From contig JBHLME010000141.1 of the NCBI GenBank assembly GCA_048938445.1, positions 1-11,109 on the forward strand: DNA of 11,109 bases, read 5' to 3'. Numbering within the stretch: position 1 is the stretch's first letter; every line of letters starts with the position of its first letter. Position numbers and translations under genes: made by a program. The stretch is from Promethearchaeota archaeon. Its GTDB lineage: Archaea; Asgardarchaeota; Lokiarchaeia; Sigyniarchaeales; SOKP01. Below the pieces are notes generated by a model that was not told the DNA's origin, searched no databases, and saw only the letters and a program-made list of their open reading frames with translations. Positions 1 through 10,629 of this stretch are shown here, in pieces.

Positions 1-1791
1 GGAACTCCTATAATAATATCAATGTTTTCACTTTTTTTTTATTTAATATTTAGGGAACCATGGACCTTTATTTATTTCTTTATATTAGCTTTTATATATT
101 TGGTCATGTCTTCTGTAGGAGTATTAATTACGATGTTTTTTTATTCTAAAAAATCACCAATTTTAGGACGACCTCCAAAAGGATGGGGACTTCAATTAAA
201 TTTATTTTTCACTGCACTCATAGGAGGCTCCTTTTTATTTGGAAAATTTATGGAATTTTTATTCCAAAACCCAGCATTTCAAGAAATATTCTTGATGTTA
301 GGAACGATTTTATCATATATCATTGCATTTGTAATTTATTTTTCATTTACAACTGTAGGAAAATATGGAAATATATTTTTATCTTTAATACAACCCGTCT
401 TGGCAATCATTTTATATAGTATTTTCACGGTTCAGTTTCATTTTGAATTTTTTTTAAGAGCTATGATTTTTTTCTTAATTTCTGCTGCCTTATTCGCAGT
501 ACCATATGGAAGAAGTTTATCGCATGTAAGTAAGATATATAAAGAAGCAACAGGGTTAGGGGGATATGAGTTTATTAGAGCATTTACTCTTTCTCTCATT
601 ACTGATGGAAATGATGACCGCATAGAAAACATGTTCGATCGAGTAGGGATCACCTCAAATATTCAAATTCAGTACTTATTTATCAGAACTGAAAAAACTA
701 AGGATTTAAAAGGACTTTTTGTGATTCCTCATGTACATTTTGGACCATTTAAAACATGTGGATCATCTGATTTACCAGAACATATCTATAGAGCATTTAA
801 AGAAATCCCCGGAATAACAGTCTACCATACAACTAACGATCACGCTCAAAATTTAACTACTCAAAAAGGAGTTAATACAATTTTAAAAAAGATAAAAGAA
901 GACGTAGCCCAAATAATGAAAAATCAAAAATTAAGATGGGAAAAAGAAATTATGAATTTTTCAAGAAAGATCTCTAATTCTGCTAAATTAATTGGAACAA
1001 CCATTGGAAATATACCTTTTATATTTCTTACTAGACATCCCCTCCCATCTGATGATATTCAACAAGAGGTGGGAAGAGAGATATATCACATTGCTAATTC
1101 TGAGGGTTTTAATAATATCATTACTATTGACTCCCACAATTCAATTATAGGGGACGAAATACTAATTTCAAAGAATTCTGTCGAAGCAAGAGATTTAATA
1201 GATGTTGCTAAGGAATATTTATTAGATAAAACAATCCAAGGAAAAAAAAGATGCCAATTTTTATATGGTGTGGCTAAGGATCCTTGCAATGAATATTCTG
1301 AAAAAGATGGAATTGGTTTTGGTGGAATTACCGTGCATCTTTTTAAAAATATAGAAACAAATCAAAAAACAGTATTCATCCACTTTGATGCAAACAATGC
1401 TTATATAGAAATTCGCTCTTATATATTAAACATGCTTCAAAATAAAGGCATTGAAAAGGGAGAAATCACTACATCAGATTCGCACACAGTTGCCAGACAA
1501 ATTTCGAAAAGAGGATATTCCCCAATTGGAGATAAAATTAAAATTGATATAATCTTAAACAAATTGGAAATTTTAATTCAAAAAGCACAAAATGATTTAG
1601 AATCCGTCGAATTTTATTATCTTGATTCAATACAAGAAAATGTTAGAATTTGGGGAGATGAAAAATATTTTGATATCATAATGACAACATTGCAAGAATG
1701 CCTTCGAGTTTCTCAAAGATTGCTCACATTTAGTTTAATAATCCCTGCATTTTTAGCTTTTATATTACTATTCTTCTTTTATAATATTTAA
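1..1791 (+). CDS. DUF2070 family membrane protein (COG3356-like, predicted membrane-associated hydrolase of the neutral ceramidase superfamily); probably 5'-partial
   Basis: The frame is open from base 1 (GGA ACT CCT ATA ATA ATA TCA ATG), so the ATG at 22 may be internal. An N-terminal multi-TM region is followed by a large soluble domain with PHVHFGPF..GSSDLP, HTTNDH, DSHN, DANN and TSDSH motifs, then a C-terminal TM helix. This architecture matches archaeal DUF2070 proteins as recalled, not searched. Confidence 0.8.
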   Translation, partial: GTPIIISMFSLFFYLIFREPWTFIYFFILAFIYLVMSSVGVLITMFFYSKKSPILGRPPKGWGLQLNLFFTALIGGSFLFGKFMEFLFQNPAFQEIFLMLGTILSYIIAFVIYFSFTTVGKYGNIFLSLIQPVLAIILYSIFTVQFHFEFFLRAMIFFLISAALFAVPYGRSLSHVSKIYKEATGLGGYEFIRAFTLSLITDGNDDRIENMFDRVGITSNIQIQYLFIRTEKTKDLKGLFVIPHVHFGPFKTCGSSDLPEHIYRAFKEIPGITVYHTTNDHAQNLTTQKGVNTILKKIKEDVAQIMKNQKLRWEKEIMNFSRKISNSAKLIGTTIGNIPFIFLTRHPLPSDDIQQEVGREIYHIANSEGFNNIITIDSHNSIIGDEILISKNSVEARDLIDVAKEYLLDKTIQGKKRCQFLYGVAKDPCNEYSEKDGIGFGGITVHLFKNIETNQKTVFIHFDANNAYIEIRSYILNMLQNKGIEKGEITTSDSHTVARQISKRGYSPIGDKIKIDIILNKLEILIQKAQNDLESVEFYYLDSIQENVRIWGDEKYFDIIMTTLQECLRVSQRLLTFSLIIPAFLAFILLFFFYNI

Positions 1792-2070: not shown

Positions 2071-2781
2071 ATGGTAGGATACTTAAATGTGATTGGTTGG
2101 GTTGATGGTGTTTCAGCGGCGGCAATTATCATATCAGCAGTGATTTTTGGTTTAGTGTGTATTATCAAGGGATTTAAAAACAACACAATACTCCTTACAT
2201 ATGCGGGGTTAACCTCTTTTTGCATAGGGAGTTTTTGGTTAGGTCCTTTTACTGATTTCCTGATGGTGCTTTTTTTTGATAACGCACATATTTATCCTGA
2301 ATTGCTATATGGACTTTTAAGTTATACAATGGTTGGTCCTGGAGTAGTGTTCGCTGCAGTTTTAGGAGGAGCTCTCATAGCACCAAATTATAAAAAAGTA
2401 TTAGTAGCCATAATGCTGATTACTGGTGGTCTTTTTGAATTTTTTCTTTATGGTTTTCCTGAACTGACATTTCAAAAATTTGTCGCACCTAATGTTGGTG
2501 AATTACTTGATGCAAGTTTTAACCAAGGTTATTTTAGCTTCTTTCTCATAGCATTTTTCCTTGCTTACATGTTGATATTCATGGCAACGGGATTTTTAAT
2601 TAAAGCAAAGCAATCTTCTGGTGAATTGAGGAGAAAATTCATTTACTTGGCAATAGGATTCTATATTTTTGTGATAACGGGAGTTATAGACGCGCTATTC
2701 ACACCAACTGTATGGGTAGGTTTCTTTAGAATTGCAATGGCTACATTTGCTATTTGGTTATATTTGGGATTAAGACCTTAA
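2071..2781 (+). CDS. Stand-alone 7TM integral membrane protein, paralog A1 (unknown function, receptor-like)
   Basis: 236 aa with seven hydrophobic segments separated by basic cytoplasmic-type loops (KGFKNN, PNYKK, KAKQSSGELRRK). Clearly homologous to 3312..4130. Confidence 0.85.
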   Translation: MVGYLNVIGWVDGVSAAAIIISAVIFGLVCIIKGFKNNTILLTYAGLTSFCIGSFWLGPFTDFLMVLFFDNAHIYPELLYGLLSYTMVGPGVVFAAVLGGALIAPNYKKVLVAIMLITGGLFEFFLYGFPELTFQKFVAPNVGELLDASFNQGYFSFFLIAFFLAYMLIFMATGFLIKAKQSSGELRRKFIYLAIGFYIFVITGVIDALFTPTVWVGFFRIAMATFAIWLYLGLRP

Positions 2782-2813
2782 TTTTTTATTTTTTTATTTT
2801 TTTAGTTATTTTT
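2782..2813 (+). terminator. Oligo-T archaeal-type terminator after paralog A1
   Basis: Several T5-T7 runs start immediately after the TAA stop. Confidence 0.55.
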
Positions 2814-3211
2814 AATCAATTTAAAATTTAATTTTACATATTCCACAGTTTTTCTTCAGCGTGTACTCTTTAAATCATAATTTTTAATTTTCTATTTTTA
2901 ACAATAATCCATTAATTAAATTTTACTATTGAACCTGTTGATCGTCTTGGAAAAAATTGTAAGATCAACTTCTTTGAATTTAAATTAAATTATTGTTGTC
3001 AAAAATAGCTTGATATAAATTTTCTATTAAGGTTTACTTTATTTAATTTCAATAAATTCTAATAAATTAAATACTAACGTAAAAGATTTTGATTTTTTGT
3101 CATTCTTTGAATAATACTCTCGTAAATAACTGGGTTATCCACGATTTTAAGAATTTATTTCTTGATAATTATTAAGAGGTTAATTAAATATCAATCAAGA
3201 ATTCAGAAATC

Positions 3212-3218
3212 TTTATAT
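3212..3218 (+). promoter_or_regulatory. Putative archaeal BRE/TATA box for 7TM paralog A2
   Basis: AGAAATC-TTTATAT about 94 bp upstream of the ATG, followed by a 15-bp palindrome. Confidence 0.4.
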
Positions 3219-3233
3219 GCTTATGTTCAAATT

Positions 3234-3248
3234 GTTATTAGTAATAAC
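3234..3248. promoter_or_regulatory. Palindrome GTTATTA-G-TAATAAC, candidate operator
   Basis: Perfect 7-1-7 inverted repeat starting 16 bp downstream of the putative TATA box. Confidence 0.4.
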
Positions 3249-3311
3249 GTATTATTTAGTTACAAAATATTTTTTCTGAAATTGTATTAAAAATAAAAAA
3301 AGGTTATTATA

Positions 3312-4130
3312 ATGTTTCTTGATTTATCAATAACTGGTTGGTTAGATGGAATCACTTCAACAGCTATCATTGCTTCTGCTTTAGTCTTTGGTTTATTGAG
3401 CATAATTAAAGGTGTGAAGAATAATACAAGGCTTTTAGTAATCGCAGGAATTCAGGTAATGATAATCGGTTCTTACTATTTAGGACCTTTTGTGGATTTC
3501 ATGTTCTATGGAATTTTTAGCCTTCACATCATACCCGAACTCTATCCCCTATTAAGTTATTCACAAGTATTCTTAGGAATAACCACAGTTGCTATACTTG
3601 GAGGAGAACTCATCACGCCGAATTACAAGCAAGCGGTAGTTGGTGCAATGTCCGCTCTGGGAATGATGCTTTTCGCACTCATATATATATGGGTTTGGGC
3701 AATGGCTTACAATGTCCCTTATCTTGAAGTCCTTGCAGGTATTAATCCTGCATTTGCAGCATTAGGAGCCTATGCGCCATGGAATCCATTTCATATAACT
3801 CCAGGTACATATGGTTTCCCTGCCGAACTAATTGATGCAACTTTTTCACCTTGGAATCCCGCGATGATGTTGATATGGATTATGCAATTCTTCGTCCTGA
3901 TATTCATGGGTGGTGGATTTCTTATAAAAGCAAAGCAATCAACGGGTAATTTACGTGGCAAGTTTATCATCCTGGCTATAGCATTCATACTTTTCTTCCT
4001 ATCGGGAATAACAGACTCGCTTATTTCTCAAGTAATAGACGCGCGTATCGGTCTCCCTATATCCAAAACAATTGCAAGAATTGTACAATGCTGGTTTGGT
4101 CTATTGATATACCTTGGTCTCAGACCATGA
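3312..4130 (+). CDS. Stand-alone 7TM integral membrane protein, paralog A2 (expanded extracellular loop 2)
   Basis: 272 aa. Shares GWxDG, IIKGxKNNT, LGPFxDF, LLSY, LGGxLIxPNYK, ELxDAxF, GFLIKAKQSxGxLRxKF and the C-terminal YLGLRP with A1. Confidence 0.85.
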   Translation: MFLDLSITGWLDGITSTAIIASALVFGLLSIIKGVKNNTRLLVIAGIQVMIIGSYYLGPFVDFMFYGIFSLHIIPELYPLLSYSQVFLGITTVAILGGELITPNYKQAVVGAMSALGMMLFALIYIWVWAMAYNVPYLEVLAGINPAFAALGAYAPWNPFHITPGTYGFPAELIDATFSPWNPAMMLIWIMQFFVLIFMGGGFLIKAKQSTGNLRGKFIILAIAFILFFLSGITDSLISQVIDARIGLPISKTIARIVQCWFGLLIYLGLRP

Positions 4131-4142
4131 CCCTAAATTCTC

Positions 4143-4176
4143 TTTTTTTTTTTCTATTATTCTTTATTTTTTTTAT
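4143..4176 (+). terminator. Oligo-T archaeal-type terminator after paralog A2
   Basis: T11 and T8 runs lie in the 63-bp convergent gap between A2 and the DUF3786-like gene. Confidence 0.55.
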
Positions 4177-4193
4177 TCATTTTCAAAATAAAA

Positions 4194-5009
4194 TTATCTC
4201 GTTCTATGTTCCCAATCCTTTTCCTTAGTAAAGAGTCTTGAAAACATGATATAACAAATATCAGGTAATTTCTTATCTTCATTATTAATTGTTATGTATC
4301 TAAGAATATGGTTGATTGTAAAAATTCCTAATAATTCCACGTGATAACTATTAATATTTTGAGAGAGTTTGTCTCCTGAAAATGCGATATCCAATCCATT
4401 TTGCGTGTCCCATGCAAGATCTATAAATATACTAGGAAAGACCTCTCTTTTGATTTTCCAACCATTAATTGTTCTCCAAACTTTTCCTCCAATAAAAGCG
4501 GCTAATGGATCCTTGTCTGCCTCTTTCAAGAGGTTGAAAGGTTCATTTCTTTGCGTGAGGACTTTTTTCATCAAATCTGTCTTGGTATCATATGATTTTT
4601 CAAAAGGTTCTTTATTTTTTATTTTCCTCTCAATAAAATCCATAATGATATCTATAAACGTTGCGCTATCTTCTCCTGGCACCCACCACACACGTTCACC
4701 AGAAAAATAATACTTGAATTCTGCTTCTATACCGTTTCCAAACTCATCACCAAAGTACGAATATGCAATGTGAATGTTTACTTCAGGAAACATTTCTATC
4801 GTGATTGTCCAATCTTCATTAATTCCGATGTTTTCAAGTTTCCCTCCTAAATCCTCTTCCACGATATTCTTTAATTTATTATTTTCTAAATTAATAAATA
4901 AAGGGTATTTATTCATGCTAATATCTTCCAACTCTTTCTCATGGGGGCCTCGTACTCCAGTCGCGTCAATTTGTCCTACTGTAAAAAACTTGTGGTCTAC
5001 TTTTTTCAT
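4194..5009 (-). CDS. Soluble protein with two tandem DUF3786-like repeats
   Basis: 271 aa. LGG...DWTITIEMFPEVNIHIAY..GDEF...AEFKYYFSG......ED resembles the DUF3786 pattern (LGG, FP, D/E-EF, ED). A second degenerate copy follows (IGG...WKIKREVFPSIFIDLAW...IAFSG). An AGGTGA SD motif lies upstream. Confidence 0.65.
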   Translation of the reverse strand: MKKVDHKFFTVGQIDATGVRGPHEKELEDISMNKYPLFINLENNKLKNIVEEDLGGKLENIGINEDWTITIEMFPEVNIHIAYSYFGDEFGNGIEAEFKYYFSGERVWWVPGEDSATFIDIIMDFIERKIKNKEPFEKSYDTKTDLMKKVLTQRNEPFNLLKEADKDPLAAFIGGKVWRTINGWKIKREVFPSIFIDLAWDTQNGLDIAFSGDKLSQNINSYHVELLGIFTINHILRYITINNEDKKLPDICYIMFSRLFTKEKDWEHRTR

Positions 5010-5021
5010 CTTATTTATTTA

Positions 5022-5027
5022 TCACCT
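5022..5027 (-). promoter_or_regulatory. Shine-Dalgarno motif AGGTGA for the DUF3786-like gene
   Basis: TCACCT on the + strand, 12 nt upstream of the minus-strand ATG at 5009. Confidence 0.55.
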
Positions 5028-5235
5028 ATTCTTTGGATTAATTATGAATGAATTTTATATTTTTTTAACTTTATGACCTATAATCATTGAAAATTAAGGT
5101 TAAAGATGTTCGATAAATTGATCTAAATTCATTAAATTCCCAAGACTATTTTGTTAATTCTTTTAAATAATGAGTGATTAAACTGATGATATACATAAAA
5201 ATTTATAGTCGATTGGATATTATAGTCCTAATACC

Positions 5236-5958
5236 ATGCAATACCCTTATTTTGTTTCTGGAATTCTGAGTTTAGTACTTGTTATCATTTCTATAATGGT
5301 AACGACCTTAATTTTTTACAAATATTATAAAGCAAGAAGGGTAGACTTTATTTATTTTGCCATTTCTGTCATGATATTATCCGAACCCTGGTGGCCTGGA
5401 GCAATTTCATTTATTTGGACTTTTTTTAATAATGGGGGAGGAATCGATCATCAACTCTACCGCTTTCTCGGAAATGTGTTCATTCCAATCGGTTTATTCG
5501 CTTGGACATTAGTTTGCACGAATTTAATATTTACTAATAAGAAAAAATTATTGATTTGGATCGTTATAGTTTCCAGTATTATATTTGAAGTAGGTTTTTT
5601 CATATTATTTTTTACATTCCCTGAATACATCGGAAAAGTTTCAGGAGAAGTTGATATTGAATATGAAACCTTTACATTAGGGTATCTATTATTCGTAGTC
5701 GCTTACATTCTATTTACAGGAATTAATTTTGCTTTAGAAACGATAAAGACTGGATCCCCTGAGTATATATTAAAAGGTAGACTCATGATAGCTGGTTTTA
5801 TTTTATTTTGTATAGGAGCGGGTAGTGATGCTATTATCACTATTTTTCCTGAAATGTTATTAGTCACGAGAATTATCATAATGATTTCAATTATATTTCT
5901 ATACCTTGGCTTTTTTTTACCTAAGTGGATGATGGATTTGCTTTTTAAAAATAAATAA
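5236..5958 (+). CDS. Stand-alone 7TM integral membrane protein, paralog B1
   Basis: 240 aa with seven hydrophobic segments. Shares KYY, DF, EPWxP, ISF, GNxFIPIGL..WT, FE, DIxYE, ETxKT..PE..xKGRLMIxGF and GFFLPxWM with 6051..6815. Confidence 0.85.
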   Translation: MQYPYFVSGILSLVLVIISIMVTTLIFYKYYKARRVDFIYFAISVMILSEPWWPGAISFIWTFFNNGGGIDHQLYRFLGNVFIPIGLFAWTLVCTNLIFTNKKKLLIWIVIVSSIIFEVGFFILFFTFPEYIGKVSGEVDIEYETFTLGYLLFVVAYILFTGINFALETIKTGSPEYILKGRLMIAGFILFCIGAGSDAIITIFPEMLLVTRIIIMISIIFLYLGFFLPKWMMDLLFKNK

Positions 5959-6050
5959 AATTCTGCAACGATTTTTAATATCAACGAGGGTGATATTTAT
6001 ATTTAACAAAAATAATTTAATATCTTATAATATTTAAGAGGAACAATTCA

Positions 6051-6815
6051 ATGATTTTTGAAACGATTTTTACACCATTTGATTTTATATCAGGTATATT
6101 TAGTAATATCATTCTTATTATTGGGGTAATTGCTTCAATTAGCGTGATTCTAAAATATTATAGAACTAGAAAAAGAGATTTTCTCTTGTTTAGTATTACG
6201 ATTTTAGTTTTAATAGAACCATGGATGCCATCAGGAATTTCATTTATAGTAGCATTATTCACCTATGGAGAAGGATTACCAGCACCAATATATATTTTCA
6301 TAGGTAATGCGTTCATTCCAATAGGGCTTATTACTTGGACAATTATTTTTACTGATCTTATATTAATAGACAAGCAAAAAATCGTTTTGCTCATTGTGAT
6401 TCTCTTTAGTACAGTTTTTGAAATACACCTATTCTATTTTCTCTTTACGAATAACCATCTCATGATAGGAGATCGAGTGGGAGCTACTGATATTAATTAT
6501 GAGAATCTTCAAATGATTTTTTTATCAATAATCCTAATGTACATACTAATAACGGGGATTACTTTTGGAATAGAAACTCTAAAAACAAATGAGCCAGAAT
6601 TAAAAATAAAGGGAAGATTGATGATTGTTGGCTTTAGTTCTTTTATAGTTTTTGGAGCGATTGATACGATCATCACGTGGAACGAAATAGCGTTGGTACT
6701 CATTCGTATCCTCGGGATTTTTGCTGCTTTTTCTTTATATGGAGGATTTTTCTTACCAAATTGGATGAGAAGGATAATACAAGAAGTAGATAGTTTTTTT
6801 AAATCACTTTTTTAA
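6051..6815 (+). CDS. Stand-alone 7TM integral membrane protein, paralog B2
   Basis: 254 aa tandem paralog of B1, with a GAGG SD-like motif at 6038-6041. Its 3' end overlaps the convergent methyltransferase gene by 17 bp. Confidence 0.85.
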   Translation: MIFETIFTPFDFISGIFSNIILIIGVIASISVILKYYRTRKRDFLLFSITILVLIEPWMPSGISFIVALFTYGEGLPAPIYIFIGNAFIPIGLITWTIIFTDLILIDKQKIVLLIVILFSTVFEIHLFYFLFTNNHLMIGDRVGATDINYENLQMIFLSIILMYILITGITFGIETLKTNEPELKIKGRLMIVGFSSFIVFGAIDTIITWNEIALVLIRILGIFAAFSLYGGFFLPNWMRRIIQEVDSFFKSLF

Positions 6816-8118
6816 ATTTACCTATAAAAAAAGCTTGTGTTCCATGTGTTGATGGGTATAATCTTCCCGTTCCTGGTAGAATTGAACCATTAATTGAATA
6901 ACTCTTGGAAATCCAGTCAGGTATCTTTACAGGTTTCAATTGATTAAATACATCTTGAATTTGTAGTTCTCCCTCTTCTGGATAGAAACTACATGTGGAA
7001 TATACAAAGATTCCACCTGGTTTTAATAATCCAAGAGCACTCTCAAGTAATTTTTTTTGGAGAATGACGTTTTGATGCAAGAATTTTTCATTTTGACGCC
7101 ATTTTAGTTCTGGATTGGATAAAAAAGTACCACTTCCCGTGCAAGGCGCATCAAGTAATACTTTATCAAATTTTTTATCAAATCGAATGGGAAATTTAAT
7201 ACTATCTGTGTTGATCATATCATAATTAGAAACATTTAGATGTTCTAACATTTTTTTTGCTTCAATAGCTCGAGTATTTAAAAATTCACCCGAAATAATC
7301 CTTGCCTTATTATTAGAGTATTGAGCAATTAATGAGGTTTTCATCCCTGGTGCGGCACACATGTCACAGATGAATTCTTCTGGTTTTGGATCTAGAACAT
7401 TCACGACTGCGGTTGAGGCTTTATCTTGAAATGTAAAAATACCATCCCTATAAAAACGACTATTAATTAGAACCTCTTTTTTTTTAATTGGTACGTAAAT
7501 TAATTCTGAAATATCTTGATCCTCTCTATATTTAATTCCTAGTTTCTTAAAATATTGATAGATATCAACCAATGGAGTGTTTTGTTCCTTAAGTCCCTTA
7601 AGTGTATTTAATCTTATCGTGCATTCATTAATATCATTATAATTATTCATGGCTTGAATGTTTTCTTTTATAAAATTAAGGGATATTACCGGCAATAGAT
7701 GATTGATAAAAAAAGTTGGAACTGCTTCCTTAATACTCAGCTTTTCCACTTCAGATTTATTTTCTAATGCCTTGCTCCAAGAAAAAGATTTTAACTTCCT
7801 AAGAAATGATATAAACAGAAAATCATCCTTGATTTCTAACTCTTTTTTTATTGAATCAATCGAGGTAGATTCCCATAAAATTCTATATGTTGCATAGAAA
7901 TACCTGGCTTCATCATTACTATCTATAAATTTGTCCTTTCTTAAAAATCTCTTAGTTTTGTTAATAATAAAGTTCAATTTACTTTTAAAGCGGATGATCT
8001 CATTGATATAATGGATGATTTGAGGATGAGTAGGATCAAGCTTTACCTTTAGGTTGCTCTGTTCAAAGTAATTTGCTAAGGATGTTATAATGTTGTTTAT
8101 TGAATCATTCTTATTCAT
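6799..8118 (-). CDS. rsmB: RsmB/NOP2/Fmu family RNA (cytosine-C5) methyltransferase, archaeal Fmu-like
   Basis: QDKAS, DMCAAPGMKT (motif I), VLLDAPCTGSG (motif IV Cys), NPELKWR, YSTCS (motif VI catalytic Cys) and R.YP..HGT.AFF. The N-terminal helical region looks like a degenerate NusB-like domain. The exact RNA target cannot be assigned. Confidence 0.9.
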   Translation of the reverse strand: MNKNDSINNIITSLANYFEQSNLKVKLDPTHPQIIHYINEIIRFKSKLNFIINKTKRFLRKDKFIDSNDEARYFYATYRILWESTSIDSIKKELEIKDDFLFISFLRKLKSFSWSKALENKSEVEKLSIKEAVPTFFINHLLPVISLNFIKENIQAMNNYNDINECTIRLNTLKGLKEQNTPLVDIYQYFKKLGIKYREDQDISELIYVPIKKKEVLINSRFYRDGIFTFQDKASTAVVNVLDPKPEEFICDMCAAPGMKTSLIAQYSNNKARIISGEFLNTRAIEAKKMLEHLNVSNYDMINTDSIKFPIRFDKKFDKVLLDAPCTGSGTFLSNPELKWRQNEKFLHQNVILQKKLLESALGLLKPGGIFVYSTCSFYPEEGELQIQDVFNQLKPVKIPDWISKSYSINGSILPGTGRLYPSTHGTQAFFIGKFKKVI

Positions 8119-8285: not shown

Positions 8286-9506
8286 TCATATTTTCTTTAA
8301 TTTATACTCTATAGAACCAATGTTATTTTTCACTGCAGCATCAAACTGGTAGTCAGCACTGGCATCTTTAAATAAGGGATTTAATTTACTGAATTTTTCA
8401 ACTCCAGAGGGTAGTGGATCTTTCCATCTTCCATTGGGGCTCATTATCGGCAAACCTGGAGCTTCAATTTCTAAATCTATACACGCTTTATCGAGAGCTA
8501 CTGGATCTTTTGATCCTAAGATTCCAAGATCAGGAACCACGGCTGTTCCAGGATTAGCAACGCAGTCGCACATTAATGCGAGATCAAATGCAAAATTAAT
8601 GAACCTGAATTTTTCTGGACCTATTGAAGAAACAACACCTAATGCATTGTCAATAAAACGTTCACATACGTCTTTAGCATTCGTCATTGCTGGTTTCACG
8701 ATTGCTCCCTCAACAGGACATATTTTACTTGAAGTACAAGCAAAACATCCAAAACATATCAGGTCATCAATAACTGCTCTCTCTCCTTCTATTTTAATGG
8801 CGTCAACAGGACAGGAGGAAATACATTGTTGTTCACACTTGGAGATATGGCATTCTTGAGGATTAATGTTAATCATTCCATAATAATGTGCTAAATGCTT
8901 ATTCTTCTTTGTAACACTTCCAATTCCAAGCTGCTTGAGTGCCCCTCCAAACGTCGCTTGAGGATGGCCTTTAAAATGAGAAATCACGACAATTTTATCA
9001 AAATCATAAAGCGCTGATGCTACTGATACTTTATTGAGTTGGATTCCATTGATATCAATTAACTTTCCATCAAGTCCATTTTCACCATCAACAAACTTTA
9101 AAGTTGCACCAGTTGTCAACTCGTTATATCCGTGAAGATTCGCGATTTTTTCATGATCTTCAGCACATGTCCTATGAGAAACGCATATATCATATCCACC
9201 AGAAAAATCAATTGTTTGTGAATGTTGCCCTAAACCTTGAGTCTCAACAAGGGTTGGAATACCTCCCTTTTCCTTTATGGCTCTCACGACTTCTCGAACA
9301 TAGTCAGGGCGTAAATAGCGGGTGTTTTGTGCCTCGCCAACATGGACTTTCACTGCAACTTTATCCCCATCATTTAAATTGTCCAGAATCTTGTCTAATA
9401 TTAATCGGGTTTTCACTAAATTGTTTGTTATCATATTAGTGGCGTTATTTCTAATTCCAGGAATCTCAATAGGTCGCGCCCAATATACAATCGGTTTATC
9501 TGTCAT
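8286..9506 (-). CDS. DUF362 domain Fe-S protein with inserted 2x[4Fe-4S] ferredoxin-like domain (COG2768-like)
   Basis: VAVKVHVGE..NT.YLRP, SHFKGH...FGGALKQLG, two four-Cys clusters ending in CP, a CDC motif, DLGILGSKDPVALDKAC and a C-terminal G..EYKL. Confidence 0.88.
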   Translation of the reverse strand: MTDKPIVYWARPIEIPGIRNNATNMITNNLVKTRLILDKILDNLNDGDKVAVKVHVGEAQNTRYLRPDYVREVVRAIKEKGGIPTLVETQGLGQHSQTIDFSGGYDICVSHRTCAEDHEKIANLHGYNELTTGATLKFVDGENGLDGKLIDINGIQLNKVSVASALYDFDKIVVISHFKGHPQATFGGALKQLGIGSVTKKNKHLAHYYGMININPQECHISKCEQQCISSCPVDAIKIEGERAVIDDLICFGCFACTSSKICPVEGAIVKPAMTNAKDVCERFIDNALGVVSSIGPEKFRFINFAFDLALMCDCVANPGTAVVPDLGILGSKDPVALDKACIDLEIEAPGLPIMSPNGRWKDPLPSGVEKFSKLNPLFKDASADYQFDAAVKNNIGSIEYKLKKI

Positions 9507-9843: not shown

Positions 9844-10629
9844 TTAATCTTGAGGTGTAGTAGATATACGTTTTGTTGGAAATGCAACATTAGGACGCTT
9901 AACTATAAAAGATGAATCGAGATCTTTAGCCATTCTGCTTGCAATATCAAAAGGAATGCCTAATGACAAGTAATTCTCAGGGAACCAAAAGTTTCCAGTG
10001 GGATCAGTTGGTCCGACTACGATGCTACTCTCATGGATTGTCTCAGTTAAGTCCGCAGGATATGTTATAAACGAAGCACATGAAGGCCCCCAGGGTATAG
10101 TTGCCATTGAACCTTTCTCATCGTGAAAATATGCCAATGAACAGAGATTTCGAATTTGTTCTGAACGACCAAAACAGAGGAATGATCTCACTTCAATATC
10201 AAGTTCATCCGTAAATTCAGACTTTTTAATTACGGTATATTCACCTAAAGGAGTTATTTTACCAACTGATTTTAATTGTTGATCAGCGATATCTGGATCT
10301 GCTAGCAAGTATTCAGCTGCGCCTCCTCTAAATTCTTTGGTACCTGTTGAAATGAAATATTTTAACTGGGGAAGGAAAGGTTTATACCCAAACCATGCTT
10401 GTCCCCCAGGACAACATCCTTCCAAGGTTTCTTGTCCTAAATATATTGAATTAATGTTTTTGGTTGTTGCTAATTTAAAAATACTTTTTGCTATACAGCG
10501 ATCTATTTTACACGAAGAAACGGCATTTTCGGGAACAGTTTTAGTACCATAGACGCATAATGGAAATGTTTCTAGCCTTCCTGCTTTTCTTAACCTAATT
10601 CCAATTTCCTTAACCGATAAATTGACCAT
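9844..10629 (-). CDS. DUF169 family protein (COG2043-like, conserved Cys)
   Basis: 261 aa with PLCVY, CCPGG..WFG, EQI..L, GPSCA....YP, GPTDP and LSLGIP, matching the DUF169 pattern as recalled. Confidence 0.75.
   Translation of the reverse strand: MVNLSVKEIGIRLRKAGRLETFPLCVYGTKTVPENAVSSCKIDRCIAKSIFKLATTKNINSIYLGQETLEGCCPGGQAWFGYKPFLPQLKYFISTGTKEFRGGAAEYLLADPDIADQQLKSVGKITPLGEYTVIKKSEFTDELDIEVRSFLCFGRSEQIRNLCSLAYFHDEKGSMATIPWGPSCASFITYPADLTETIHESSIVVGPTDPTGNFWFPENYLSLGIPFDIASRMAKDLDSSFIVKRPNVAFPTKRISTTPQD

Follow-up and report, generated by a model that had tools for sequence, protein, structure and literature searches.

The window analyzed here is an 11,109-nucleotide stretch of DNA from a Promethearchaeota archaeon of the Lokiarchaeia (Sigyniarchaeales; contig JBHLME010000141.1 of assembly GCA_048938445.1). 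It harbors four co-oriented open reading frames (ORFs), A1, A2, B1, and B2, which are genuine genes, each encoding a stand-alone membrane protein of seven helices. The four seven-transmembrane (7TM) proteins are true paralogs without a fused domain, and they belong to a large protein family that is related, remotely, to the HisKA_7TM sensor module. The four genes, numbered from the first letter of the window, are the following:

A1, 2071-2781, forward strand: 236-aa stand-alone 7TM protein of the A-type clade (from the ORF and paralogy)
A2, 3312-4130, forward strand: 272-aa stand-alone 7TM protein of the A-type clade (from the ORF and paralogy)
B1, 5236-5958, forward strand: 240-aa stand-alone 7TM protein of the B-type clade (from the ORF and an AlphaFold2 model)
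B2, 6051-6815, forward strand: 254-aa stand-alone 7TM protein of the B-type clade (from the ORF and paralogy)

An earlier note on this DNA had reported four co-oriented ORFs of 236-272 aa, and its coordinates are exact. It had also described two close pairs that align with each other and a set of shared motif positions, and both statements hold. By BLASTP, A1 and A2 are 40% identical (E 1e-51) and B1 and B2 are 43% identical (E 6e-61), while A1 and B1 share 25% identity over 204 collinear residues, with an E value of 6e-5 for a single comparison. The relatedness of the A and B pairs, on which the earlier note had staked its reading, is weak but collinear. The four-way alignment contains 21 invariant columns, among which is every motif position named previously (in A1 numbering, L102-I103, D147, K189, D207, R220-I221, and Y231-x-G233). 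A2 is distinguished in the alignments by an insertion of ~30 residues in extracellular loop 4-5, between TM4 and TM5. Homologs of A1 cover 100% of the protein at 57-80% identity; a genome of the same genus has an A1 ortholog at 67% DNA identity, and the B1-B2 tandem, too, is present again in a same-genus genome. Pfam and NCBIfam return no match for the four proteins at E≤1 except two noise-level NCBIfam rows for A1, and the family profile has no match to PDB sequences at E≤10.

Seven transmembrane (TM) helices in an N-out/C-in orientation, likewise proposed before, are borne out by hydropathy, by a structural model, and by charge counts. Hydropathy plots display approximately seven segments per protein. 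The AlphaFold2 model of B1, built from a 67-row alignment, has a predicted local distance difference test score (pLDDT) of 95.8 and a predicted TM-score (pTM) of 0.90; it comprises seven TM helices, a β-hairpin at residues 133-143 in loop 4-5, intracellular loops of just 2-5 residues, and a short C-terminal helix (230-237) after TM7. The ratio of cytoplasmic to extracellular lysine and arginine residues is 13:2 in B1, 14:1 in B2, 10:1 in A1, and 9:2 in A2, a bias that supports the N-out/C-in orientation. The single basic residue of the membrane core is the conserved TM7 Arg, and the conserved residues of TM7 are R212, Y223, L224, and G225. In the family alignment, three residues buried in the outer half of the bundle stand out, namely, the TM7 Arg (99%), a TM6 Asp (85%), and a TM4 Glu (76%). 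Mean conservation is 0.505 on the inside versus 0.446 on the outside (Mann-Whitney P 0.004) and is lowest in the extracellular loops (0.38); the contrast between a conserved inner and a variable outer face drawn in the earlier note is thus correct in direction but modest in size.

The four genes represent a small part of their family. In the source genome (4.63 Mb in 256 contigs), a profile of the four sequences identifies 31 places and 30 ORFs, and an iterated profile retrieves 49 ORFs, nearly all of 226-275 aa. Since membrane-protein profiles can drift, the late-recruited clades were checked by profile comparison; against the round-1 set they reach 97.4% and 97.2% in hhalign (E ~1e-11, 218-222 columns), versus 2.0% and 0.3% for the reversed controls. 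One ORF, C68_32549, was left out of the family because it matched over just 68 columns and its reversed control reached 30%, which lowers the count from 49 to 48. Judged by sequence, the family thus has about 48 paralogs in this genome, or ~1% of its ORFs (48 of the 5,181 of at least 80 aa). The genes are scattered over 36 contigs and include several tandem pairs, and the window is the largest cluster.

The family is lineage-specific and centered on a single Asgard lineage. Members occur in each of the 24 other genomes of the taxonomic family (f1) to which the source genome belongs, with 4-45 matches each, while genomes of the remaining families of the order have 0-5. In a survey of 150 other genomes of the phylum, in which up to 18 candidates per genome were scored, members are found in 29 of 29 genomes of f1, in all three of a second taxonomic family (f2), and in 5 of 118 elsewhere. 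An exhaustive search of 1.84 billion proteins yields 1,312 representatives at E≤1e-3. Among the labels attached to homologs are "Candidatus Thorarchaeota archaeon" (one homolog) and Promethearchaeota (clusters of the ESM Atlas). The expanded repertoire suspected from the array of four is confirmed by these counts, both genome-wide and in related genomes, with the array being a small sample of a dispersed set; that the repertoire consists of receptors is something we infer. Standard annotation leaves the family blank, even though it amounts to ~1% of the ORFs of the lineage.

HisKA_7TM (PF16927) is an N-terminal membrane sensor module of histidine kinases and cyclic-nucleotide enzymes. When compared with 14 bona fide PF16927 domains taken from the same phylum, the family aligns along 204 collinear columns from TM1 to TM7 (hhalign 84.2%, E 7.3e-6, score 46.7). 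The controls score lower, with 16.9 and 17.7 for reversed profiles and 28.4 for the best of 20 block-shuffles. Of 20 longer homologs of the family, two give full-length matches to PF16927, with 22.3 and 25.0 bits against a cut-off of 28.6. The nearest non-self models in the ESM Atlas are HisKA_7TM histidine kinases, a GGDEF cluster, and an HD-domain cluster, with TM-scores of 0.65-0.77, and a 248-aa stand-alone HisKA_7TM cluster in bacteria is also listed. Galperin et al. 2018 (PMC5847659) place HisKA_7TM among the sensor domains of archaeal kinases and report that archaeal versions often escape standard models. Our conclusion, which has moderate support, is that these proteins form a distant and for the most part unfused offshoot of sensor modules of the HisKA_7TM kind and fall outside PF16927 as defined. 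The term "undescribed" in the earlier note was accordingly too strong, as the module from which that note had set the proteins apart is the one to which they are remotely related.

Structure searches with the B1 model point to the GPCR-like fold in general. In Foldseek against the PDB, the top 50 rows are all G-protein-coupled receptor (GPCR) 7TM domains, at E values of 5.9e-3 or worse and TM-scores of 0.34-0.58. A Foldseek-independent aligner (VIA) ranks Ste2 first (Z 12.4, root-mean-square deviation 4.6, 226 residues aligned), with a designed GPCR-like fold (12.2) and GABA-B (12.1) close behind; helical bundles reach Z ~13 through their common arrangement, and the list is flat, with Z 9.4 at rank 50 and with ACER3 (11.3), adiponectin receptor 2 (9.9), and ion-pumping rhodopsins (~9.5-10.3) included. 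The class A GPCR signature motifs DRY, NPxxY, and CWxP occur in none of the four window proteins, and a search of the genome (96.5% complete) for G-alpha (PF00503) yields 10 partial matches to the GTPase core, none above the 48.8-bit cut-off. Type 1 rhodopsins have a conserved retinal-binding Lys in TM7. No TM7 Lys column is conserved at 60% or more in the family; A1, B1, and B2 have no TM7 Lys, and A2 has one at the outer edge. PAQR/CREST hydrolases combine a conserved His/Asp metal site with an N-in topology. The family has no His cluster, there being 1-2 His per protein and only one alignment column with more than 20% His (28%). The 7TM domains of archaeal histidine kinases are themselves reported to be GPCR-like in fold (Nature 2026, PMC13581589), which accounts for the GPCR matches. 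On the evidence of the model, the four proteins appear to share the common GPCR-like 7TM bundle and nothing beyond it. The comparison with GPCRs and type 1 rhodopsins in the earlier note therefore stands for the N-out/C-in topology and does not extend to motifs, retinal Lys, or G-alpha.

Fused outputs are found in relatives of the window proteins. The best 150 representatives include 18 of more than 330 aa, and these were scanned together with two of intermediate length (n=20). P0142 has the architecture of a complete sensor kinase (7TM, PAS, HisKA, and HATPase_c). P0064 (419 aa), from a public metagenome, combines an A-type 7TM with a C-terminal TIR domain (TIR_2, E 7e-15) and has weak matches to bSEFIR, TIR-NLR, and ThsB. 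RING/B-box/C1-type zinc fingers are seen, sub-threshold, in 6 of the 20, and 10 of the 20 show nothing. Still longer fused forms (624-2000 aa) are absent at E≤1e-8, which is weak evidence of absence. Hence, the earlier statement that the proteins stand alone with no output domain applies to the four of the window but not to their homologs, some of which carry PAS-HisKA-HATPase_c, TIR, or RING-like fusions.

A tree of the members of the source genome has three main clades, and the type of partner tracks the 7TM clade. The A-type clade contains A1, A2, and three paralogs of ~355 aa with an eight-cysteine cytoplasmic tail (CxxC…CxxC…CxxC…CxxC), which matches zf-RING_2, zf-C3HC4_3, Prok-RING_1, B-box, C1, and DZR, all below threshold. 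The N-termini of the kinase- and TIR-fused homologs are also A-type. In the B-type clade, B1 and B2 are nested among members that adjoin a gene for a DENN-like protein of ~286 aa. The third clade goes with a 90-aa helical module of no known family, which is encoded within 46 nt of eight 7TM genes (six downstream, three with a 4-nt overlap; two upstream) and is fused to the C-terminus of two other 7TM proteins (E 3e-25 and 8e-24); the relationship between the module and the 7TM is one of fused and split forms. The module belongs to no Pfam family and has no PDB sequence match below E 0.87. Two of its copies, at C109 10469-10744 and C184 24604-24879, both on the reverse strand, are on contigs with no recognized 7TM gene. 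Three loci of the 90-aa-module clade adjoin soluble PAS histidine kinases, which is a post-hoc hint only. The source genome has a large two-component repertoire, with 45 HATPase_c matches, many of them in multi-PAS frames of more than 1,000 aa, yet no PF16927 match.

The 286-aa partner of the B-type paralogs has an invariant CPxC…CxH zinc site at its N-terminus. Four copies searched at E≤1 show neither DENN nor any other Pfam family, and homologs are few (13 in a word-indexed search). When the AlphaFold2 model of the partner (pLDDT 86.8) is compared with 48,161 chains, only five reach Z≥8, and all five are DENN-family proteins, aligned over 164-180 residues within positions ~84-280: DENND1A (10.3), C9orf72 (9.1), DENND10 (9.0), and folliculin (9.0 and 8.8). 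SMCR8 (7.6) and then winged-helix pieces of ~65 residues are next. The top five in Foldseek are DENND1A/B and C9orf72, at E values of 7.8e-3 or worse, and the Atlas search with this protein lists no DENN cluster. The N-terminal domain of the model follows the order strand-strand-helix-strand-strand-strand, which is presumably that of longin/uDENN domains. On this modeling, the partner is a zinc-ribbon plus DENN-like protein with a predicted core DENN plus d-DENN fold.

In the source genome, 11 of 19 full-length copies of the DENN-like gene adjoin a 7TM gene of the family at a distance of 62-243 nt. Five more adjoin genes for proteins of 209-241 aa with ~5-7 helices; these multi-TM neighbors of "orphan" DENN-like genes are no more than candidate members of the family, with iterated-profile E values of 6e-6 to 3e-3 and 14.5% in hhalign. 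Across five other genomes from four genera, a family 7TM gene is present within 1.5 kb of 6 of 15 DENN-like copies. The other copies in these genomes comprise three with a ~160-aa, 4-TM neighbor, one with an 8-TM neighbor, and five with none. At loci L082, L083, and L091 (genomes G019, G023, and G010, respectively), a four-helix membrane protein of 159-162 aa is encoded directly upstream of the DENN-like gene on the same strand, suggesting that the four-helix protein is a second kind of membrane partner.

The divergence of the 7TM proteins and that of their DENN-like neighbors are correlated in the 11 adjacent pairs (r 0.45, with 82 of 5,000 permutations as high). For one such pair, the predicted complex has an ipSAE of 0.63, versus 0.00 for the best of three controls; of 80 solved complexes 58 attain this mark, as do 2 of 110 mismatched pairs, a calibration that holds only roughly for a run on custom alignments. 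At least 95% of the contacts are common to the runs, and the pLDDT of the partner is at least 77. The contacts on the 7TM side are all in intracellular loops 1-3 (ICL1, ICL2, and ICL3) and the end of TM7, that is, on the predicted cytoplasmic face, and the DENN-like protein contributes its conserved C-terminal helix and tail. A Ras-family GTPase gene lies near the 7TM/DENN-like pair at only one of six loci examined. At locus L075 (contig C8), a gene for a SUFU-domain protein (PF05076, E 4e-46; 6008-6718, reverse strand) adjoins one for a Ras-family small GTPase (PF00071, E 7e-40; 6810-7373, reverse strand), three genes away from the 7TM/DENN-like pair.

The remaining genes of the window are the following:

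22-1791, forward strand: DUF2070 predicted membrane protein of 589 aa (E 2e-81), upstream of A1
4194-5009, reverse strand: 271-aa soluble protein of no known family, divergent from B1 with a 226-bp spacer
6799-8118, reverse strand: RsmB/NOL1/NOP2-type RNA cytosine-C5 methyltransferase (PF01189, E 4e-47), convergent to B2
8286-9506, reverse strand: DUF362 protein into which a 4Fe-4S ferredoxin-like segment is inserted
9844-10629, reverse strand: DUF169 protein

The 3′ end of B2 and the convergent RsmB-like gene overlap by 17 nt. In the DUF2070 protein, the N-terminal third is hydrophobic and is followed by a large soluble part and then by a TM segment at the C-terminus. Redox genes of the Fe-S and F420 types are also seen near further members of the 7TM family, in addition to DUF362 and DUF169 in the window. 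The regions upstream of A1, A2, B1, and B2 are AT-rich and, when compared, have otherwise no obvious common motif. The DNA data sets listed for the window are sediment metagenomes, and no RNA data set is among those listed. The 271-aa protein has no family in Pfam, NCBIfam, or PADLOC; its one paralog in the genome is 72% identical and is encoded on the short contig C122, with no 7TM neighbor there. The order of 271-aa gene, B-type 7TM gene, and RsmB gene is kept in two same-genus genomes. The idea that the 271-aa protein is a diverged form of the DENN-like or the 90-aa partner was rejected (hhalign 0.1% and 3.1%, respectively). It is a possible candidate associate of the 7TM system.

With modest confidence, the four window proteins can be read as sensor or receptor modules whose output passes via the cytoplasmic face and the C-terminus to separate partners. 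The part that senses a putative ligand would be the outward half, with its buried TM7 Arg, TM6 Asp, and TM4 Glu and the most variable loops. The state of this outer half would be passed across the bundle to the short, basic cytoplasmic face and the end of TM7. In relatives, this output is attached covalently, as a PAS-HisKA-HATPase kinase, TIR, a RING-like zinc finger, or the 90-aa module; in other paralogs it is encoded next door, as the 90-aa module or as the zinc-ribbon plus DENN-like protein with its predicted docking by the C-terminal helix. A1 and A2, from the zinc-finger/kinase clade, and B1 and B2, from the DENN-partner clade, may act through putative partners encoded elsewhere or through each other.

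A number of observations weigh against this reading. At E≤1, PF16927 detects not one of the four window proteins or of 67 aligned members, and it has no match at E≤0.01 in the source genome. The link to HisKA_7TM stands at 84% and not above 95%, the 90-aa-module clade and a fourth clade alone reach just 0.6% and 0.4% against the HisKA_7TM profile, and the charged residues of TM4, TM6, and TM7 are not common to bona fide HisKA_7TM domains in the hhalign alignment. Moreover, as the function of HisKA_7TM is not established, homology to it is no proof of sensing. Histidine kinase genes are no closer to family members than expected (4 of 49 members within 3 kb versus a null mean of 2.9, P 0.32). 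On the partner side, 9 of the 15 DENN-like copies in the five other genomes have no recognized family 7TM gene within 1.5 kb, and the calibration of the complex prediction is, as noted, rough. At the predicted interface, 6 of 26 positions are identical and 16-17 similar in B1/B2, compared with 28% identical and 61% similar in the rest of the protein; the interface is no better conserved than that background, which speaks neither for nor against coupling of B1/B2 to a DENN-like paralog at another locus. Finally, none of the four window genes is adjoined by a DENN-like or 90-aa partner gene. The signaling through a separate partner envisaged in the earlier note therefore fits the paralog clades with dedicated modules, whereas the four proteins of the window have no identified adjacent partner.

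A less probable, though still credible, role is that of membrane anchors or adaptors that recruit cytosolic regulators (DENN-like, RING-like, or 90-aa) to membrane sites and sense no external ligand, much like the multi-pass membrane adaptors of eukaryotic trafficking. Such a role would suit the very short cytoplasmic loops of the B1 model, its lack of a recognizable extracellular ligand-binding domain, the simple docking of a partner C-terminal helix in the predicted contact, and partner types that are used in eukaryotic membrane trafficking and ubiquitylation. However, in both profile and structure comparisons the closest relatives are sensor modules, one homolog being fused to a full histidine kinase; the near-invariant buried Arg, Asp, and Glu would hardly be needed for passive anchoring, and the 4-45 diverged paralogs per genome are better explained by diversified specificity. 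The same charged residues inside TM4, TM6, and TM7, together with the presence of ACER3, adiponectin receptor 2, and ion-pumping rhodopsins among the structural matches and a noise-level NCBIfam row for A1 ("putative transporter", E 0.39), could instead indicate small transporters, channels, or intramembrane enzymes built on the same seven-helix bundle. This is unlikely, given that there is no conserved His cluster or TM7 Lys, that the topology is opposite to the N-in orientation of PAQR/CREST, and that the C-terminal fusions are all signaling or regulatory domains rather than transport accessories. A match to a transporter or enzyme family, which the earlier note regarded as contrary to its proposal, is absent from Pfam, NCBIfam, and PDB sequence searches, and the relation that did emerge is to a known sensor, HisKA_7TM.

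A role in biological conflict or immunity, in which diversifying membrane sensors of viruses or competitors are coupled to effectors, seems a shade less likely still. It is suggested by the TIR fusion of P0064, with its additional matches to the bSEFIR, TIR-NLR, and ThsB defense models, and by the large diversification of paralogs, their tandem arrays, and their variable outer loops. Yet the TIR fusion occurs in just one of the 20 longer homologs scanned, PADLOC is negative for the four window proteins, the DENN-like protein, and the 90-aa module (apart from one noise row for B2, E 0.006), the neighborhoods consist of housekeeping and redox genes rather than defense islands, and the B1-B2 tandem is kept within the genus at 67% DNA identity with no apparent rapid turnover. 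Least likely, and very improbable in itself, is that the proteins are direct homologs or ancestors of eukaryotic GPCRs with a G-protein-like pathway. All 50 top Foldseek rows are GPCRs, Ste2 heads the independent list, the N-out/C-in topology and the short C-terminal helix after TM7 in B1 are shared, and the predicted docking of the partner C-terminal helix is reminiscent of G-alpha helix 5. The matches are nevertheless poor in E value and TM-score and the Z list is flat and below ~13, GPCR chains are over-represented in the PDB, and HisKA_7TM models fit better; the signature motifs are missing from the four proteins, and no G-alpha above the cut-off is encoded in the genome.

Published work already covers the 7TM sensor module, the GPCR-like fold of that module, and DENN proteins in Asgard archaea. 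The literature searched held no account of the expansion of stand-alone members in this lineage, of the partners specific to each clade, or of the 7TM/DENN-like pairing. Eme et al. 2023 do not mention 7TM or GPCR in their main text. A 2026 preprint (10.64898/2026.10.28.762692) names the Asgard-eukaryote structural clusters "G protein-coupled receptors (4)", "a class C GPCR", and "7TM proteins"; these clusters, whose members are listed only in its supplements, may overlap with the family.

Asgard archaea are intensively searched for antecedents of eukaryotic signaling and membrane trafficking, and the relation to HisKA_7TM provides a family of this lineage with a testable function. The family also links prokaryotic two-component sensing with eukaryote-type regulators (DENN-like, RING-like, and TIR). 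A bolder scheme, offered as speculation that is more apt to fail than to hold, is that diversified stand-alone 7TM receptors couple through their cytoplasmic face to DENN-like exchange factors and thence to Ras/Rab/Arf-like GTPases, with sister clades coupled to RING-like ligase modules or histidine kinases and with the partners of B1 and B2 encoded elsewhere. If true, this would be a prokaryotic pathway from a seven-helix receptor to a GTPase regulator, built by combining a sensor module of the two-component type with a eukaryote-signature DENN protein, and an analogue or forerunner of receptor-controlled GTPase signaling in eukaryotes. Should the DENN-like docking be real, it would offer a simple, expressible two-protein system for asking how control of a GTPase regulator by a 7TM bundle first arose. 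Even without the docking, the family would illustrate how a sensor module can part from its kinase and, from clade to clade, join with different outputs.

Among known systems, HisKA_7TM shares with the family its seven helices, its length class of ~220-240 aa, a collinear profile match, and, in one family homolog, the classic 7TM-PAS-HisKA-HATPase_c architecture. The family differs from it in being mostly stand-alone (132 of the best 150 representatives are of 283 aa or less), in a conserved TM4 Glu, TM6 Asp, and TM7 Arg of its own, and in having expanded, within one archaeal family, to 4-45 copies in each genome. DENN-like, 90-aa, RING-like, and TIR outputs are not known to have been described for HisKA_7TM. 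Eukaryotic GPCRs (classes A, C, D, adhesion, Frizzled, and taste) have the same 7TM bundle and N-out/C-in topology and superpose over the full length at Z 9.4-12.4; in contrast to them, the proteins described here have intracellular loops of only 2-5 residues, and HisKA_7TM models fit them more closely. PAQR/CREST proteins differ in orientation, the charge bias of the window proteins being that of N-out proteins.

Asgard DENN proteins have been described by Liu et al. in a 2020 preprint (10.1101/2020.10.19.343400), which reports an operon with Roadblock and a Rab-like GTPase as well as expansions in other lineages. The DENN match and the expansion of paralogs are features in common. In contrast, the partner described here has an N-terminal CPxC…CxH zinc domain, no Pfam match, and a paired 7TM gene, while the words "7TM" and "transmembrane" are absent from the main text of that preprint. 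The sensory rhodopsin SRII-HtrII has no sequence relation to the family, which is without the retinal TM7 Lys, and its transducer is a membrane protein, whereas the partner here is cytosolic and is predicted to sit on the cytoplasmic face. The logic of the two systems would nonetheless be the same, that is, a stand-alone 7TM sensor acting through a separately encoded partner.

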